Shown here piece after piece: positions 2,418 to 53,792 of a stretch of DNA of 53,792 bases (the stretch's first letter is position 1; every line of letters begins with the position of its first letter). The DNA is taken from positions 1 through 53,792 of the forward strand of contig JAUSJM010000013.1 of the NCBI GenBank assembly GCA_030647265.1. The letters run 5' to 3'. The notes beneath the pieces are model-generated. The model was not told the origin of the DNA and ran no database searches. It saw only the letters and a program-made list of their open reading frames with translations. This stretch comes from a bacterium (GTDB taxonomy: Bacteria; Patescibacteriota; Microgenomatia; Daviesbacterales; UBA10151). A program made the position numbers and the translations under genes.

Positions 2418-3050
2418 TCAAGGTGTCCAACTTTCATAGGTATAACAGTTGTTGCTGAAAGCTATACATCCGTAGGTAGTGTTAGCTCGAAGGTTAGCAG
2501 CATGACCGGAAGAAGCAATCCAGACAGGAACCACACCTTGATAGTTTGAGTTCATGGCAATATTTTCCACAATTTTATGATACGAGGGATAAGGAAGATT
2601 CTTGCTGTTTACTCTGTTAGTAAAACCATCATGGTTAAAGTTAGCAGTGACTTCAGAAGCCCTGACAGCAGCAAAGTTACAAGTGTATAAATCAGTTTTA
2701 ACCTCTGCTAAACCCTGGGACTGTCGATAATCATTGATCTGCTTCATTATATAATCCCTTTGGGAGAGGGTAGGTAATGAGGTGGGAGTTATTGGAATTT
2801 TGGTAGGTGTAGGAGTAGAAACTTTTGCTGGGGTTAATGTAGGAGTTAAGGTAGGTTTAGATATTGGCTTTACAGGCAAAGAGGGGATAATAGGCACTGG
2901 AGGTATAGTTGGTATACTGGGCAGTGGCATGGCCTGTGAAAACTTTTCACCTTCCCACATGGAGTGTGGGAACTCAAATTTAGATAAAACTCCCAATATT
3001 AAGGGAGTAGATAATAGTATGGAAACAAAAATGGCAGGCAGTATGGGCAA
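2418..3050 (-). CDS. CAP/SCP-domain surface protein with Pro/Thr-rich linker
   Basis: N-terminal hydrophobic segment, PTLTPT linker, INDYRQSQGL...FNH...ENIA...WIASSGHAANL CAP motifs. Confidence 0.85.
   Translation of the reverse strand: MPILPAIFVSILLSTPLILGVLSKFEFPHSMWEGEKFSQAMPLPSIPTIPPVPIIPSLPVKPISKPTLTPTLTPAKVSTPTPTKIPITPTSLPTLSQRDYIMKQINDYRQSQGLAEVKTDLYTCNFAAVRASEVTANFNHDGFTNRVNSKNLPYPSYHKIVENIAMNSNYQGVVPVWIASSGHAANLRANTTYGCIAFSNNCYTYESWTP
2944..2972 (+). repeat. REP family A copy in frame in the CAP gene
   Basis: TTTTCACCTTCCCACA-TGGAG-TGTGGGAA; identical to the RAYT1-flanking repeat except the 5-nt loop is reverse-complemented; encodes FPHSMWEGEK. Confidence 0.9.
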
Positions 3051-5397: not shown

Positions 5398-5434
5398 ATT
5401 TTCACCTTCCCACACTCCATGTGGGAATCTAAAA
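5398..5434 (+). repeat. REP family A copy downstream of RAYT1
   Basis: ATTTTCACCTTCCCACACTCCATGTGGGAATCTAAAA with TTCCCACA/TGTGGGAA stem; exact 37-bp duplicate at 5618-5654. Confidence 0.92.
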
Positions 5435-5437
5435 ACT

Positions 5438-6103
5438 TTACACCTCTTCATCAATAGATAGGGAATACAGGGTAGGATCTTCTATCTCTGTTTCTTCAAC
5501 AAAGGCTTGATAACTTAAATTAGGATTAGTCTTAGAAAAATAAGAGATAATTGTCTCAATATCACAAAATGGGTGTTGTTTACCAGAGATATAAGCTCTA
5601 TATGATGAATAGTAGTTATTTTCACCTTCCCACACTCCATGTGGGAATCTAAAACCCAAGGGATTCCTATGGATGTATTTAGAAAGCTGAAGGAGATATT
5701 CTTCATTTTCAATTAACCTGGCTTTAAATGGACCCTGAAAGAGAGAGCCAACACGTTCATATTTGGTGTTGAAGTACCTTGTATAGCTATCAGAAACTTT
5801 CCTCAAAAAAAGTGTCACGCCTCCGTCCTCAAGCTGTTGAATTAAGAGGTGAAAATGGTTTGGCATTAAACAAAAACAGTATATTCTTATCATCTCTTTT
5901 TGATCTTCTATCTTCTTCATCTTTATCACACCTCTTCTAAAATCTGAAAGTTTCATTGGGACTGGTTCTCTTCGGTAATAGTCCAAGGTTTCCAAAAAAC
6001 GCCAATAATCTCTCTTACCCATAAAAATTCCTCTCTTTTCCACACCTCTGTTGTAGATATGATAAAACTCACCAGAAACAAAAGGAGGATTTAACATACT
6101 CAT
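5438..6103 (-). mobile_element. REP-associated tyrosine transposase (RAYT; IS200/IS605 Y1 HUH family), copy 1
   Basis: YHIYNRG, CLMPNHFHLL (HUH), YFNTKYERVGSLFQGPFKA, YIHRNP, SSY; flanked by family A palindromes. Confidence 0.92.
5618..5654 (+). repeat. REP family A copy in frame inside RAYT1
   Basis: Exact duplicate of 5398-5434; encodes FRFPHGVWEGEN between the HRNP and YSSY motifs. Confidence 0.92.
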
Positions 6104-6110
6104 ATGATAT

Positions 6111-6152
6111 ATTTCACCTTCCCACACTTCAAGTGGGAACACGAAAATAATT
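6111..6152 (+). repeat. REP family A variant upstream of RAYT1
   Basis: ATTTCACCTTCCCACACTTCAAGTGGGAACACGAAAATAATT; the last 21 nt match murC 46631-46651 exactly. Confidence 0.85.
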
Positions 6153-23504: not shown

Positions 23505-23544
23505 CTAACCCCAGGGGTTAGTTAGCTTCCAACCTCAGGATGTT
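23505..23544 (+). repeat. REP family B palindromes upstream of RAYT2
   Basis: CTAACCCC-A-GGGGTTAG perfect palindrome plus degenerate AACCTCAGGATGTT. Confidence 0.75.
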
Positions 23545-23584: not shown

Positions 23585-24262
23585 GTGCCTACAAGAAGTA
23601 TTATCTTTGCCCAGAATCAGGTTTACCATATCTTCAATAGGGGTGTTGCTCATCTGCCAATCTTCTATTCAATTAATAACTACTCTAGATTTTTAGACAC
23701 TCTGAACTATTACCGTTTTACAAATACACCTACAAGTTTTTCCCAGTTTATGAAATCACCACTAGATTCAAGACGGCAAATTACAGATAACCTCCAGAAA
23801 GAGAATGATCTTTTGGTAGAAATATTGGCCTTCTGTTTAATGCCTAACCATTTTCACCTTTTATTAAAGCAAATCTCAGAAAAGGGAATCATTAATTTTA
23901 TGGGAAATGTCCAAAATAGTTATGTTAAATATTTAAACATCAAAGAGGGTAGGATAGGGCCTTTATTCCAATCAGCTTTTAAAGGTAAAAGAATAGAAAC
24001 AGATGAGCAACTTCTTCATGTTTCCAGATATATTCATCTAAATCCTTCCACAAGTTATTTAGTAGAACAGGAAAAATTCGCTGAATATCCCTGGTCCTCA
24101 TTACCAATTTACATATCTAACTCATCCACATATAACACTTTTGTTAACCCAAGGCTAATTTTAGAGTTCTTCAAGAGTGGAGAAAAATATAGAGAATTTC
24201 TCGACGACCAAGCTGGATATCAACAGGAATTAGCAAATATTAAACACCTAACTATGGAATAG
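23585..24262 (+). mobile_element. RAYT-like tyrosine transposase, copy 2
   Basis: YHIFNRG, CLMPNHFHLL, GPLFQSAFK, YIHLNP, YPWSS; palindromes on both sides. Confidence 0.92.
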
Positions 24263-24923: not shown

Positions 24924-24944
24924 ACAACCATAGATTTTCCTAGC

Positions 24945-42397: not shown

Positions 42398-43075
42398 ATG
42401 ATTTCAACTATTCTCGTTTATGCAAATACGAAGGAACGCCAGCAGGAAGCAGAAAAGATGCTTTTGGAAGCAGGATTTAAACAAAATCATCCTGATCTTT
42501 TATGGTTGGGGGAAGAGGAGAAGCTGGGAATAGAGCAAGTTCGGCAGATCCAGCAGTTTTTAAGCTTAAAACCTTATCAAGCCAGAGGTCATGCTGTAGT
42601 TTTAATATCAGCAGATCACTTAACTTTGGAAGCTCAAAATGCTTTTTTAAAAACTCTGGAGGAGTCGCCGGAAGAAACCCTTATCATCTTAGGAGCATCT
42701 TCAGAAGATGTCTTTTTACCGACAATCCTCTCCCGCTGCCGGATTTCTTACCCGGAAAAAGCTTCTTCCCAACAAAAGAATCTTTCTGAAAAAGAGGCTT
42801 TAGAGATAGAAAAACTTTTAAAATCTTCCCTGGAAGAACGTTTTGTTTTTGTTGAAAAACTCAAAGAAAAAGAGGAGTTTTTGTTAAATTTAATTATCTA
42901 CTTCAGGCACAAACTTCTAGAAAAATCCTTAGGTGTCAATACAAATCCACCTCCGAGGTGGAAGGCAGAAACTATCCAGAGTTTTCTAAAAGACCTTCTT
43001 CAAGCGGAGAAGTGGAAAGAACAAAATATCAGCATTAGAGCTATCCTGGAGCACCTCATGCTAAAAATGCCTTGA
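42398..43075 (+). CDS. holB: DNA polymerase III delta-prime-like protein (short)
   Basis: HPD, IEQVR, AQNAFLKTLEE, LPTILSRC. Confidence 0.8.
   Translation: MISTILVYANTKERQQEAEKMLLEAGFKQNHPDLLWLGEEEKLGIEQVRQIQQFLSLKPYQARGHAVVLISADHLTLEAQNAFLKTLEESPEETLIILGASSEDVFLPTILSRCRISYPEKASSQQKNLSEKEALEIEKLLKSSLEERFVFVEKLKEKEEFLLNLIIYFRHKLLEKSLGVNTNPPPRWKAETIQSFLKDLLQAEKWKEQNISIRAILEHLMLKMP
42946..42962 (+). repeat. Palindrome in frame in holB
   Basis: TCCACCTC-C-GAGGTGGA; its reverse complement matches 49776-49792 over 17 nt. Confidence 0.8.
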
Positions 43076-45925: not shown

Positions 45926-47230
45926 ATGAAGCATGTACATTTCTTAGGGATCGGGGGAAGCGGAACATCAGCTGCTGCTGCCATTGCTCAAGCTCAGGGA
46001 TATAAGATCAGTGGCTGTGACAAAGACCCTCAAGCTGACTTCCTAAAATTTTTTCCTAAAGAACAAATTTTTATTGAACATTCACCAAAACACTTAAAAG
46101 GTGTCAATATTTTAGCTACCACTCCGGCAGTTTTTTCTTTAGATCCCCATAATCCCGAGCTTTTGGAAGCCCAGAAGAGAGGTTTGGAAGTTCTTACCTG
46201 GCAGGAATTTATGGGAAAATATTTGGAAAAAGATAAGTTTGTTATTGCTATTTGTGGTACCCATGGGAAAACCACTACCACAGCGATGAGCAGTCTACTT
46301 TTAGAAGAAGCTAAATTTGATCCAACTGTGGAGCTGGGGTCAGTTATTCCTCAGTGGGGTACTAATTACAGAATAGGAAAAGGGAAGCCTGTCCTGAGCG
46401 GAGTCGAAGGATATTTTATTACTGAAGCTGACGAGTTTAGTGATAATTTTTTAGCCAGCCATCCGGATATCACCATTCTAACTTCTGTTGAAATGGATCA
46501 CCCTGAGTTTTTCAAAGATTTTACTGACTACAAAAAAAGTTTCCAGAAATTTCTTTCCCAAACTAAAAAAACAATTATTGCTAACCTGGCAAACTCAGGA
46601 GTAAAAGAAGTTTTAGCTTCCCACTCGTCGAGTGGGAACACGAAAATAATTGACTATTCAGACAAACTTATCGATTTTCCACTTCAGGTGTTGGGACAAT
46701 TCAACATCCTAAATGCATCTGCTGTTTACCAACTGGGTCTAGCCCTAGGAATTAACCCGGAAATTATCAAAAAAAGCCTCAGTTCTTACCAGGGGACCGG
46801 CAGAAGGTTTGAATACTTGGGAAAAGTAGGTAAAACAGAGATCTACTCTGACTTCGGCCATCACCCCACAGAAATTAAGCTAACCATAAAAGCAGCCAGA
46901 GAGAAGTTCTCTGACAAGAAAATTCTTCTGGTATTCCAACCCCATATGTTTTCCCGAACCAAGGCTTTATTTACTGATTTTGTAAAAGTATTAAGTAATG
47001 TTCCTGTAGATAAAACATATCTTTTGGATATATACCCCTCCAGAGAAATAGACACTGGTTTGGTAAGCAGTCAGGAGTTAGTAGAAGCTGTCAATAAACC
47101 TAACTTCCGATATTTAGAAAAAGAAAAGATTAAAGAAACACTCCATCATGAAGCTTCAGATTATGACATCATCATCTTTATGGGGGCAGGGGATATTGAT
47201 AAGATAGCCAGAGGATTTGTAAACCAATAG
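45926..47230 (+). CDS. murC: UDP-N-acetylmuramate--L-alanine ligase
   Basis: HFLGIGGSG, GTHGKTTTT, EADE, DFGHHPTE, FQPH, MGAGDI. Confidence 0.93.
   Translation: MKHVHFLGIGGSGTSAAAAIAQAQGYKISGCDKDPQADFLKFFPKEQIFIEHSPKHLKGVNILATTPAVFSLDPHNPELLEAQKRGLEVLTWQEFMGKYLEKDKFVIAICGTHGKTTTTAMSSLLLEEAKFDPTVELGSVIPQWGTNYRIGKGKPVLSGVEGYFITEADEFSDNFLASHPDITILTSVEMDHPEFFKDFTDYKKSFQKFLSQTKKTIIANLANSGVKEVLASHSSSGNTKIIDYSDKLIDFPLQVLGQFNILNASAVYQLGLALGINPEIIKKSLSSYQGTGRRFEYLGKVGKTEIYSDFGHHPTEIKLTIKAAREKFSDKKILLVFQPHMFSRTKALFTDFVKVLSNVPVDKTYLLDIYPSREIDTGLVSSQELVEAVNKPNFRYLEKEKIKETLHHEASDYDIIIFMGAGDIDKIARGFVNQ
46388..46411 (+). repeat. 24-bp REP-like insert in frame in murC
   Basis: CCTGTCCTGAGCGGAGTCGAAGGA encodes PVLSGVEG between GKGK and YFITEADE; related to murD 48788-48821. 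Confidence 0.85.
46618..46651 (+). repeat. REP family A-related palindrome in frame in murC
   Basis: TTCCCACTCG-T-CGAGTGGGAA plus tail; AGTGGGAACACGAAAATAATT is identical to 6132-6152. Confidence 0.9.
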
Positions 47231-49729: not shown

Positions 49730-49937
49730 AAATTCTGATCATTATAGGATAGATTTCATAGTCTCAGATCTAGCTTTCCACCTCGGAGGTGGCAGGCTAA
49801 TTCCCTATGTACTAGAGGTTAACATTATTCCTGGTTGGACTCCAGAAAGTTTATTTCCCAAGGCAGCCAAAGCAGCAGGAATCAGTTTTGAGGAACTAAT
49901 AAAAAAACTAATTCAAATTAGCCTCAAATTGGGCTGA
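49726..49937 (+). pseudogene. ddl: D-Ala-D-Ala ligase remnant with a large internal deletion
   Basis: ATG overlapping the murD stop gives MKILIIIG*; another frame from 49746 gives RIDF...PYVLEVNIIPGWTPESLFPKAAKAAGISFEELI, the Ddl C-terminus. Confidence 0.85.
49776..49792 (+). repeat. Palindrome in frame in the ddl remnant
   Basis: TTCCACCTCGGAGGTGG, same family as the holB copy. Confidence 0.8.
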
Positions 49938-53230: not shown

Positions 53231-53251
53231 ATCTAACCCCCGAGGTTAGAT
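53231..53251 (+). repeat. REP family B palindrome at the 3' end of RAYT3
   Basis: ATCTAACC-CCCGA-GGTTAGAT, 3 nt from the RAYT3 stop. Confidence 0.85.
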
Positions 53252-53254
53252 AAA

Positions 53255-53792
53255 TTATTCCTCCTCAAGCAGTAGATGTTTCATAATCTCTAGCTCCTTA
53301 GCATAATCTCCATGCCCTCCAACAAAATCCTTATAATCGTTACTATTTTTAAAGTTGTTTAGAACAGAATCCGCTACACATAACTGATCATGATCAACAT
53401 CTATAAAGTGCTGGTAAGATGAGTAAGGATAAAGCTTCAATTCTTGAACCAACTCACTCACATAAGGATTAAGGTGAATATAACGAGAAACATGAAGCAG
53501 TTGGATCTCATCTTCTATTAAAACTGTTTTAAATACTCCCTGGAATAGTGGTCCCACTCTTGTATGCTTAGTGTTGAAATATTTAGTATAGCTGTTCAGT
53601 ACTTTTCCTATGAATTCCGAAATACCGTTATCTTGCAGCTGCCTAACTAGGAGATGAAAGTGATTAGGCATGAGGCAGTAACAGATAACCTCTACAACTT
53701 TAGGATTATGGCTAAAATCATTAATTTTAAAGCGGTTACGATCTGAAAAAGGGGGCTTAGGTCCAGTAAACTGATAATAATAAAGCGTCTTT
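53255..53792 (-). mobile_element. RAYT-like tyrosine transposase, copy 3 (5' end outside the window)
   Basis: Frame is open to the window edge (KTLYYYQFTGPKPPFS...YCLMPNHFHLL); GPLFQGVFK, YIHLNP, YPYSSY. Confidence 0.9.

Follow-up and report, generated by a model that had tools for sequence, protein, structure and literature searches.

An in-frame REP-type palindrome in murC of a small Daviesbacterales genome and its probable link to a RAYT-like Y1 transposase gene

The murC gene in a 53,792-nt stretch of DNA from a bacterium of the Daviesbacterales (contig JAUSJM010000013.1 of assembly GCA_030647265.1; the whole stretch is referred to here as the window) contains, at positions 46610–46651, a palindromic repeat that also flanks a Y1 transposase gene, RAYT1. 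We consider it likely that this stretch is a copy of a repetitive extragenic palindrome (REP) that codes for a tolerated passenger peptide, and that its cognate enzyme is the gene 40 kb away, which resembles the REP-associated tyrosine transposases (RAYTs). The repeat is here called REP-A. In related genera, about two thirds of the sampled REP-A copies lie in frame in housekeeping genes, and they are usually read as S-H-x-x-S-G-N/K. The genome that contains the window (G000; other genomes, contigs and loci are likewise designated with G, C and L) has 35 contigs, a total length of 784,921 bases and a completeness of 92%, and the window is its contig C1. The principal features of the window are as follows.

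45926..47230, plus strand: murC (UDP-N-acetylmuramate–L-alanine ligase), intact open reading frame (ORF) of 434 aa with three Pfam Mur ligase domains

46610..46651, plus strand: REP-A copy inside murC; hairpin 46618–46638, left flank GTTTTAGC, right flank CACGAAAATAATT

5438..6142, minus strand: RAYT1, homologue of Y1 (IS200-like) tyrosine transposases; likely ATG start at 6103

6111..6152, plus strand: REP-A copy in the 5' flank of RAYT1, 16 nt upstream of the likely ATG; hairpin 6119–6139, with a 21-mer in common with murC

5618..5654, plus strand: REP-A copy within the RAYT1 ORF; hairpin 5627–5647, read on the minus strand as FPHGVWE shortly after YIHRNP

5398..5436, plus strand: REP-A copy directly 3' of the RAYT1 stop codon; hairpin 5407–5427

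A first-pass annotation of the window had drawn attention to a 21-mer, AGTGGGAACACGAAAATAATT, shared by 6132–6152 and 46631–46651. We found it at exactly these two places in the window; no third match appeared there even when 3 mismatches were allowed, and 100 shuffles gave an expectation of 0.00. At 46618–46638 it completes TTCCCACTCG-T-CGAGTGGGAA, as described; this is a perfect 10-bp palindrome, and the site does lie inside the 434-aa MurC ORF. The stretch is translated in frame as V229-L-A-S-H-S-S-S-G-N-T-K-I-I242, in which the repeat is read as ASHSSSGNTK. The likeness extends 5' of the 21-mer, as the left flank TTTAGC is common to the murC copy and four other genomic copies, while the tail past CACGAAAA is common only to the murC copy and the copy in the RAYT1 5' flank. 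The non-palindromic tail that was said to belong to the match is thus present in both copies, but its murC part probably overlaps native codons: the 21-mer ends in ATA ATT (I241-I242), which in alignments with orthologous MurC proteins falls on the conserved Ile of the motif IDYS, so this end may be native murC sequence rather than repeat.

REP-A has the form TTCCCAC-N7-GTGGGAA, with a conserved 7-bp stem, a variable 7-nt loop and conserved flanks. Ten exact sites are present in G000, and 0 were expected from shuffles of the window. The hairpins start at the following positions, all of them exact matches to the pattern.

C1 (the window): 2952, 5407, 5627, 6119 and 46618

Other contigs: C5, 24932; C12, 2111; C13, 4677; C26, 16784; C27, 18174

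All ten copies have TTTTCACC or TTTAGC on the left, and CACGAA, CATG, CTCAAA or TCTAAAA on the right. The conserved unit measures about 36–38 nt, from TTT(T)AGC or TTTTCACC on the left to CACGAA(AA) on the right. The earlier suggestion of a mobile unit larger than the hairpin therefore holds for its size, since the hairpin has 21 nt, while its mobility is something that we infer. The stem contains no stop codon in any frame. Like REPs, REP-A is a short repeated palindrome with a conserved stem and a variable loop, although its copy number is low compared with classical REPs, and it is not strictly extragenic, as 3–4 of the ten G000 copies lie inside ORFs. The GTAG/CGTC tag is absent from the G000 copies; in relatives, numerous copies carry CGTAG or TGTAG at a distance of one base from the stem on its 3' side, and to judge from these the wider family may carry the tag. 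Besides murC and RAYT1, another ORF of the window is a probable host.

2944..2981, plus strand: REP-A copy with hairpin 2952–2972; probable host is a CAP-domain ORF, 2418–3050 on the minus strand

This copy probably lies inside the CAP-domain ORF, provided that TTG is the real start, and would then be read as FPHSMWE between the N-terminal hydrophobic stretch and a Pro-rich linker. Against a profile that includes the flanks, all ten copies score higher on the deposited plus strand (35.7–40.8 bits) than on the minus strand (17.9–25.7 bits). The loops are present in both orientations (ACTCCAT, ATGGAGT) despite the uniform strand of the flanks, so loop inversion seems to be independent of them. 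A looser palindrome scan (1 mismatch per arm, loop of 3–12) returned 39 matches, among which, by eye, only the ten exact copies have common flanks and the rest look like chance. Also, an uptake-signal-like word found no support, as the 7-mer by itself shows no enrichment, with 184 occurrences where about 188 would be expected.

The membership of the murC stretch in this family was assessed with a profile of the nine other copies, from which the murC copy was left out. Positions 46610–46647 match it with E=4.2e-10 (38.5 bits), whereas the best match outside the family in the 785-kb genome has E=0.37. On these sequence comparisons, namely family membership, flanks and profile match, the murC stretch is a true member of the RAYT-flanking repeat family, in agreement with the connection drawn by the first-pass annotation. 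That annotation had proposed a search for further copies; in addition to the ten in G000, the palindrome was found in 49 of the 96 family genomes, where copy numbers reach 25, and the reversed control gave 0 in all of them. As single-stranded DNA the murC copy folds with -9.0 kcal/mol (z=-3.06), the most stable fold among five copies tested. Moreover, a Logan contig of the probable source run spans 46388–47230 with 0 differences, so the murC repeat is not a quirk of binning or assembly. Among public runs this was the single one in which the stretch was found, and its data consist of contigs, which can show presence and cannot show rare alleles; most of the aligned pieces were less than 90% alike and came from other organisms, and the joints, being of low likeness, were not used.

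The protein that hosts the repeat matches solved MurC structures with E=5e-73, and the HMMER alignments to them break over residues 214–246. An AlphaFold2 model built from a 31-row alignment has a mean pLDDT (predicted local distance difference test) of 92.4 and places a helix at 224–231, a loop of 8 residues at 232–239 and a strand at 240–243; the block 231–240 has a mean pLDDT of 72, the second lowest in the protein. According to this model, the repeat codes for a helix end, a surface loop and a strand start, where the central domain of MurC is least conserved. We aligned MurC across 30 related genomes and then in 41 sequences including metagenome contigs, and the segment proved not to be conserved among orthologues, which was the second check proposed. 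The most frequent form of the stretch between (V/I)L and (I/L)DYS is KxVMKxxxVxx, which has 11 residues and is not palindromic (16 of 41 rows, manual count), and four further rows have it with extra residues; overall, the loops range from deleted to about 20 residues, with four rows lacking the whole segment. The G000 loop likewise has 11 residues. Since the lengths are equal, the repeat replaces native murC codons and adds none, and the word "insert" that had been applied to it does not suit a segment without net gain in length.

The same murC site is occupied by other palindromes in relatives. G021 has TCCACCTCGGAGGTGGA, a palindrome of family B, the family that adjoins the Y1 gene on contig C28 of G000; L035 and L031 have a 14-bp palindrome with the same left flank, TTTTAGCTT; in G011 there is a 15-bp palindrome that occurs nowhere else in that genome; and the sequences of G001 (CTAGC-TTCCTAC-CCCAAGG-GTGTGAA), G003 and G024 are read as decayed REP-A. 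This loop is thus a site recurrently occupied by palindromes. A quick MurC tree is star-like, with 16 of 36 inner branches open, and for this reason it was not used to order events. A second site in murC (site 1) has a perfect REP-A in 6 of the 41 sequences, where native GHSPxHLxG-VDIL becomes GHSASHxxSGNVDIL, and the presence of this copy differs between close MurC pairs (L054 vs L068, L036 vs L043). In L068, the first ~60 residues of MurC, including the REP-A site, are like L101 and the remainder is closest to L054; this mosaic likeness suggests recombination between murC alleles of related lineages. Site 1 (GHSPxHL) in L017, L016, L031 and L078 has inserts of 20–35 residues with several palindromic or repeated units, such as the GVGS repeats of L017. 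A further palindrome, TGCAACCT-N3-AGGTTGCA, translated as C-N-L-x-G-C, occurs at murC site 1 in G011 and G009 (L007, L010) and also at a site of prmC, described below, in G018 and G005 (L120, L121).

We sampled 75 REP-A copies with surrounding DNA from 17 genomes and called a copy intragenic when it lay 30 nt or more inside a frame free of stops and 100 aa or longer. By this definition 48 copies (64%) are intragenic. A Pfam family (E≤1e-5) was assigned to 36 of the 42 distinct host ORFs scanned, two already identified being left out. The hosts include alanine racemase (Alr), phosphoglycerate kinase (PGK), GlmS, MurC, MurD and MurT with its partner amidotransferase, as well as DinB, UvrC, RecG, DNA polymerase III delta' (HolB), ATP synthase gamma (AtpG) and an M1 peptidase. 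No common position relative to gene ends was found among the sampled sites. Outside the window, another host in G000 is a prmC-like ORF.

C5:24924–24960 in ORF C5:24661–25455: REP-A copy in a prmC-like ORF, hairpin at 24932

There the copy is translated as LPTWSVGT (AKN-IYLPTWSVGTR-IIATD) and falls in a loop of the S-adenosylmethionine-binding domain of this release-factor methyltransferase homologue. The sequence here is 6 residues longer than in most orthologues, which have 5 residues at the site; an intact REP-A with another loop stands at the same place in G041, and decayed copies stand there in G003 and G017. In alr, a clean insertion of eight codons (YSHMSSGN) is seen in G043 when compared with G018 and with G000, whose alr lies in the window.

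The 48 intragenic copies are read in three frames: 36 as S-H-x-x-S-G-N/K, 7 as F-P-x-x-x-W-E and 5 as P-T-x-x-V-G. Four of the seven F-P-x-x-x-W-E copies are inside RAYT genes, and after removal of RAYT and unnamed small ORFs and collapsing of shared sites the split is 25/1/4 of 30; since kin are not independent, the chi-square on frame use is only a rough guide. As we read the sequences, the TAG stops contained in the full flanks TTAGC...CGTAG fall in the third (P-T) frame. This by itself accounts for part of the bias and, together with the hydrophilic S-H...S-G-N reading, for much of it. The bias of 36 in 48 could otherwise suggest that a peptide motif S-H-x-x-S-G-N, and not DNA, is what has been selected, and native MurC site 1 (H-L-x-G-V, CAC-N7-GTG) does resemble the REP core, as would be expected if the murC segment were native sequence that had converged on the repeat. 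However, the profile match of E=4e-10 includes the flanks and excludes chance resemblance, and the same DNA is also found between genes and in the other two frames, which makes a selected peptide unlikely. With part of the bias already accounted for by the TAG stops, we regard chance or convergence as highly improbable.

RAYT1 scores 32.6 bits against Pfam Y1_Tnp (cut-off 23), and its translation contains NHFHLLI and YIHRNP, by which it is predicted to have the HUH motif and the catalytic Tyr of Y1/HUH enzymes. Its orthologues (57–73% identity) are named in their sources as transposase of Candidatus Daviesbacteria. As in RAYTs, both sides of the gene carry copies of a repeat that is scattered through the genome (hairpins 5407 and 6119), with the third copy, 5627, inside the ORF. 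The association recurs in all five further genomes considered (G105, G097, G084, G104 and G086), each of which has a 66–72% identical RAYT1 orthologue with 2–3 perfect REP-A copies at spacings of about 216 and 480 nt. A strict DNA pattern with REP-A directly after YIH(R/K)N was found in 7 of the 96 genomes, a count that is no census because the pattern misses true orthologues (those with Ser, or with a 4-residue spacer as in G000). At protein level, 85 of 120 database homologues (at least 57% identity) have FPxxxWE at the position of the internal copy, where more distant homologues have a non-palindromic LKLSGDNLRS of equal length. RAYT1 is not the only such gene in G000, which has six Y1_Tnp loci; they are only about 40–50% alike, as judged by matches in relatives, and several adjoin palindrome families of their own.

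These results are best put together as follows. The Y1 enzyme would recognise the single-stranded REP-A hairpin and then copy or exchange it. In such a gene-dense genome, with hardly any space between genes, copies would survive where the hairpin amounts to a short hydrophilic loop that the protein tolerates. In murC the repeat would have displaced the native 11-codon loop, probably by inserting into an older palindrome at this repeatedly occupied site or by being exchanged for it. The peptide ASHSSSGNTK is probably a neutral passenger, and REP-A is presumably mobilised by RAYT.

Several results weigh against this reading. As for the enzyme, RAYT1 scores 46.1 bits against NCBIfam REP_Tyr_transpos (NF047646), below the cut-off of 80, and so is distantly related rather than an equivalog; a sequence search of solved structures in the PDB gave no match at E≤1; and REP-A is present in many genomes where RAYT was not looked for. 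The G000 copies are few (10) and have neither the GTAG nor the CGTC tag. Random positions in the same loci are intragenic in 82% of cases against 64% for REP-A, which means that genes are still under-hit, as expected under selection. As for murC itself, an allele with an empty site was looked for and not found: among the genomes and metagenomes scanned, the closest MurC is only 62–64% identical, so an insertion is not directly seen. Plain transposition predicts net length gain or target duplication, and neither is seen in the alignments. Finally, the decayed look-alikes in G001, G003 and G024 could mean old occupancy, with the G000 copy renewed and not newly inserted.

The last point leads to hairpin turnover at fixed sites. 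Old palindrome sites, such as those in murC, prmC, murT and alr, may have been overwritten by the active REP family, either by Y1-catalysed strand exchange between hairpins or by insertion of REP into REP followed by deletion, and the G000 copy would be such a renewal. Besides murC and prmC, of 30 distinct host sites at least 8 are occupied in more than one genus (pgk, dinB, uvrC, murT, pepN, a GT2, a methyltransferase and gatD). Where a site is shared, its loops mostly fall into separate, discrete types instead of differing by single changes; identical loops make up 68 of 403 pairs within genomes against 205 of 4448 between genomes, and a small set of loop types is found again across genera. 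The occupant itself changes, as at the murC site with its different occupants described above and at the murT site, which holds a family B palindrome in G000 and REP-A in G003 and G063; at prmC, copies in G000 and G041 differ in their loops and those in G003 and G017 have decayed. Replacement is length-neutral both in murC and within RAYT1. Simple vertical descent and random insertion both fail to explain these patterns of recurrence and loops, and two readings are open, that is, repeated targeting of a small number of hairpin-prone or tolerant sites, or exchange between hairpins. We know of no hairpin-exchange reaction for RAYTs, which counts against turnover. Likewise, the G011 palindrome, as a singleton, does not obviously belong to a mobile family, the poorly resolved MurC tree leaves common descent and recurrence inseparable, and the same recurrence could arise if selection let copies through at only a small number of tolerant loops. 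On balance we think renewal by turnover possible, at odds well below those of a REP copy with a passenger peptide.

A stronger form of this idea, which we hold to be doubtful, is that hairpins are exchanged as length-preserving cassettes at fixed codon sites in essential genes by a Y1 enzyme that cuts one hairpin and joins it to another. The enzyme would hold a master hairpin in its own frame, next to the catalytic tyrosine, and the loops of murC, prmC and murT would stay occupied for very long times while the occupant (REP-A, family B or others) changed and protein length remained constant. If true, this would be a site-directed, length-preserving rewriting of protein loops by a domesticated transposase.

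A third possibility is that the hairpin is kept for a function of its own in DNA or RNA, as a binding site, a pause or stability element, or a handle for a domesticated RAYT, and not as a passenger. Stems are perfect at shared sites, synonymous positions included, although the proteins are 55–70% identical across genera; in prmC, the codons CTT CCC ... GTG GGA ... CGA are identical in G000 and G041, and generally the stem is fixed while the loop varies. Of five copies tested, the one in murC folds most stably (-9.0 kcal/mol), and RAYTs have been argued to be co-opted by the host (PMC5581495). Nevertheless, the search required perfect stems, so that stem conservation is partly ascertainment. 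The presence of the repeat varies between close MurC proteins (the pairs L054 and L068, L036 and L043), many orthologues carry decayed or native sequence, and each genome has only 10–25 copies, which share no particular place with respect to the ends of genes. We therefore consider a retained function improbable, and the REP copy with a tolerated peptide remains the preferred reading.

Other palindromes of G000, several of which adjoin Y1 genes, are listed below.

About 40 nt upstream of the C28 Y1 gene: TCCACCTC-N-GAGGTGGA (family B)

Window 42946–42962 and 49777–49793, and G000 C13:21251–21267: family B copies

Window 23505–23521 and 53233–53249: CTAACC-N5-GGTTAG palindrome, directly beside the window Y1_Tnp genes 23585–24259 and 53258–53791

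At the C2 Y1 gene: ACCAGAGG-T-CCTCTGGT palindrome

Family B (TCCACCTC-N-GAGGTGGA) has 7 copies in G000. One is inside a 229-aa ORF upstream of gyrB and is translated as NPPPRWK, one is just after murD, and one is inside murT, translated as FHLGGGG, at the REP-A site of G003 and G063. The CTAACC-N5-GGTTAG palindrome is also found on C23, C26 and C29, and the RAYT-like Y1_Tnp gene 53258–53791 is cut by the contig end.

REPs are extragenic by name, and how they spread has yet to be settled. In the present system most copies are in frame in genes, including essential ones such as murC, and the host genome has hardly any space between genes. The sites, whether filled, decayed, replaced or empty, form a natural series at codon resolution, which bears on the target choice of Y1 enzymes, on hairpin exchange versus insertion, and on the share of short-loop variation in the Candidate Phyla Radiation (CPR) that is due to repeats. 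In addition, REP segments resemble lineage-specific protein insertions and can mislead the alignment, phylogeny and annotation of CPR proteins. Among the literature matches listed, no paper joins RAYT, REPIN (inverted REP doublet) or REP with Patescibacteria, Microgenomates or the CPR; the exception among them is a preprint on an archaeon in which a RAYT KO is mentioned close to rbcL.

Three known systems can be compared with REP-A. First, intragenic REPs that are translated, often in replication or repair genes, are described by Di Nocera et al. 2013 (PMC3733652), together with REP-flanked RAYT genes ("REPtrons") and the GTAG and CGTC superfamilies. REP-A is similar to those REPs of 20–40 bp in being a palindrome tied to a RAYT gene that it flanks, with some copies translated inside genes, and its hosts include the repair and replication genes DinB, UvrC, RecG and HolB. 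It differs from them in several respects. REPs are mostly intergenic in the survey of PMC3733652, while 48 of the 75 sampled REP-A copies are inside ORFs; the G000 copies have no GTAG/CGTC tag, though relatives have CGTAG 3' of the hairpin; one copy is within the RAYT ORF itself; and the host is a 0.8-Mb groundwater bacterium whose relatives are named Candidatus Daviesbacteria.

Second, the Rickettsia palindromic elements (RPEs) are in-frame insertions of about 150 bp that add 30–50 residues (PMC10969869, PMC3733652). Like them, REP-A stands in frame in unrelated housekeeping genes of a small genome, at places compatible with the fold and function of the protein. RPEs measure about 100–150 bp, however, whereas REP-A has 21–38 nt, codes for 7–12 residues and adds 0–8, so it does not qualify as an RPE; and REP-A brackets a Y1 transposase gene, while the passages on RPEs in these two papers give no link to a transposase.

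Third, RAYTs are mostly single-copy, vertically inherited, host-like genes (PMC5581495). As in REPIN-RAYT systems (Bertels and Rainey; PMC5581495, 10.1101/2024.10.14.618302), a Y1 transposase is flanked by its own repeat and the repeats persist at orthologous positions, and the system here appears to be vertically inherited within the lineage. Unlike those systems, in which RAYTs are typically single-copy and repeats number hundreds, G000 has six Y1_Tnp loci, and REP-A copy number is in the tens. REPINs are inverted REP doublets, while single hairpins are found here; the adjacent pair on C27 (18113/18174) belongs to two different families. Taken together, intragenic REPs and RPEs are already in print (PMC3733652), and REP-A is a variation on that known theme. 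What sets it apart is the much higher intragenic share, the very small unit, the copy in the RAYT frame, the palindromes that several Y1 paralogues each have for themselves, and the reoccupied codon sites.

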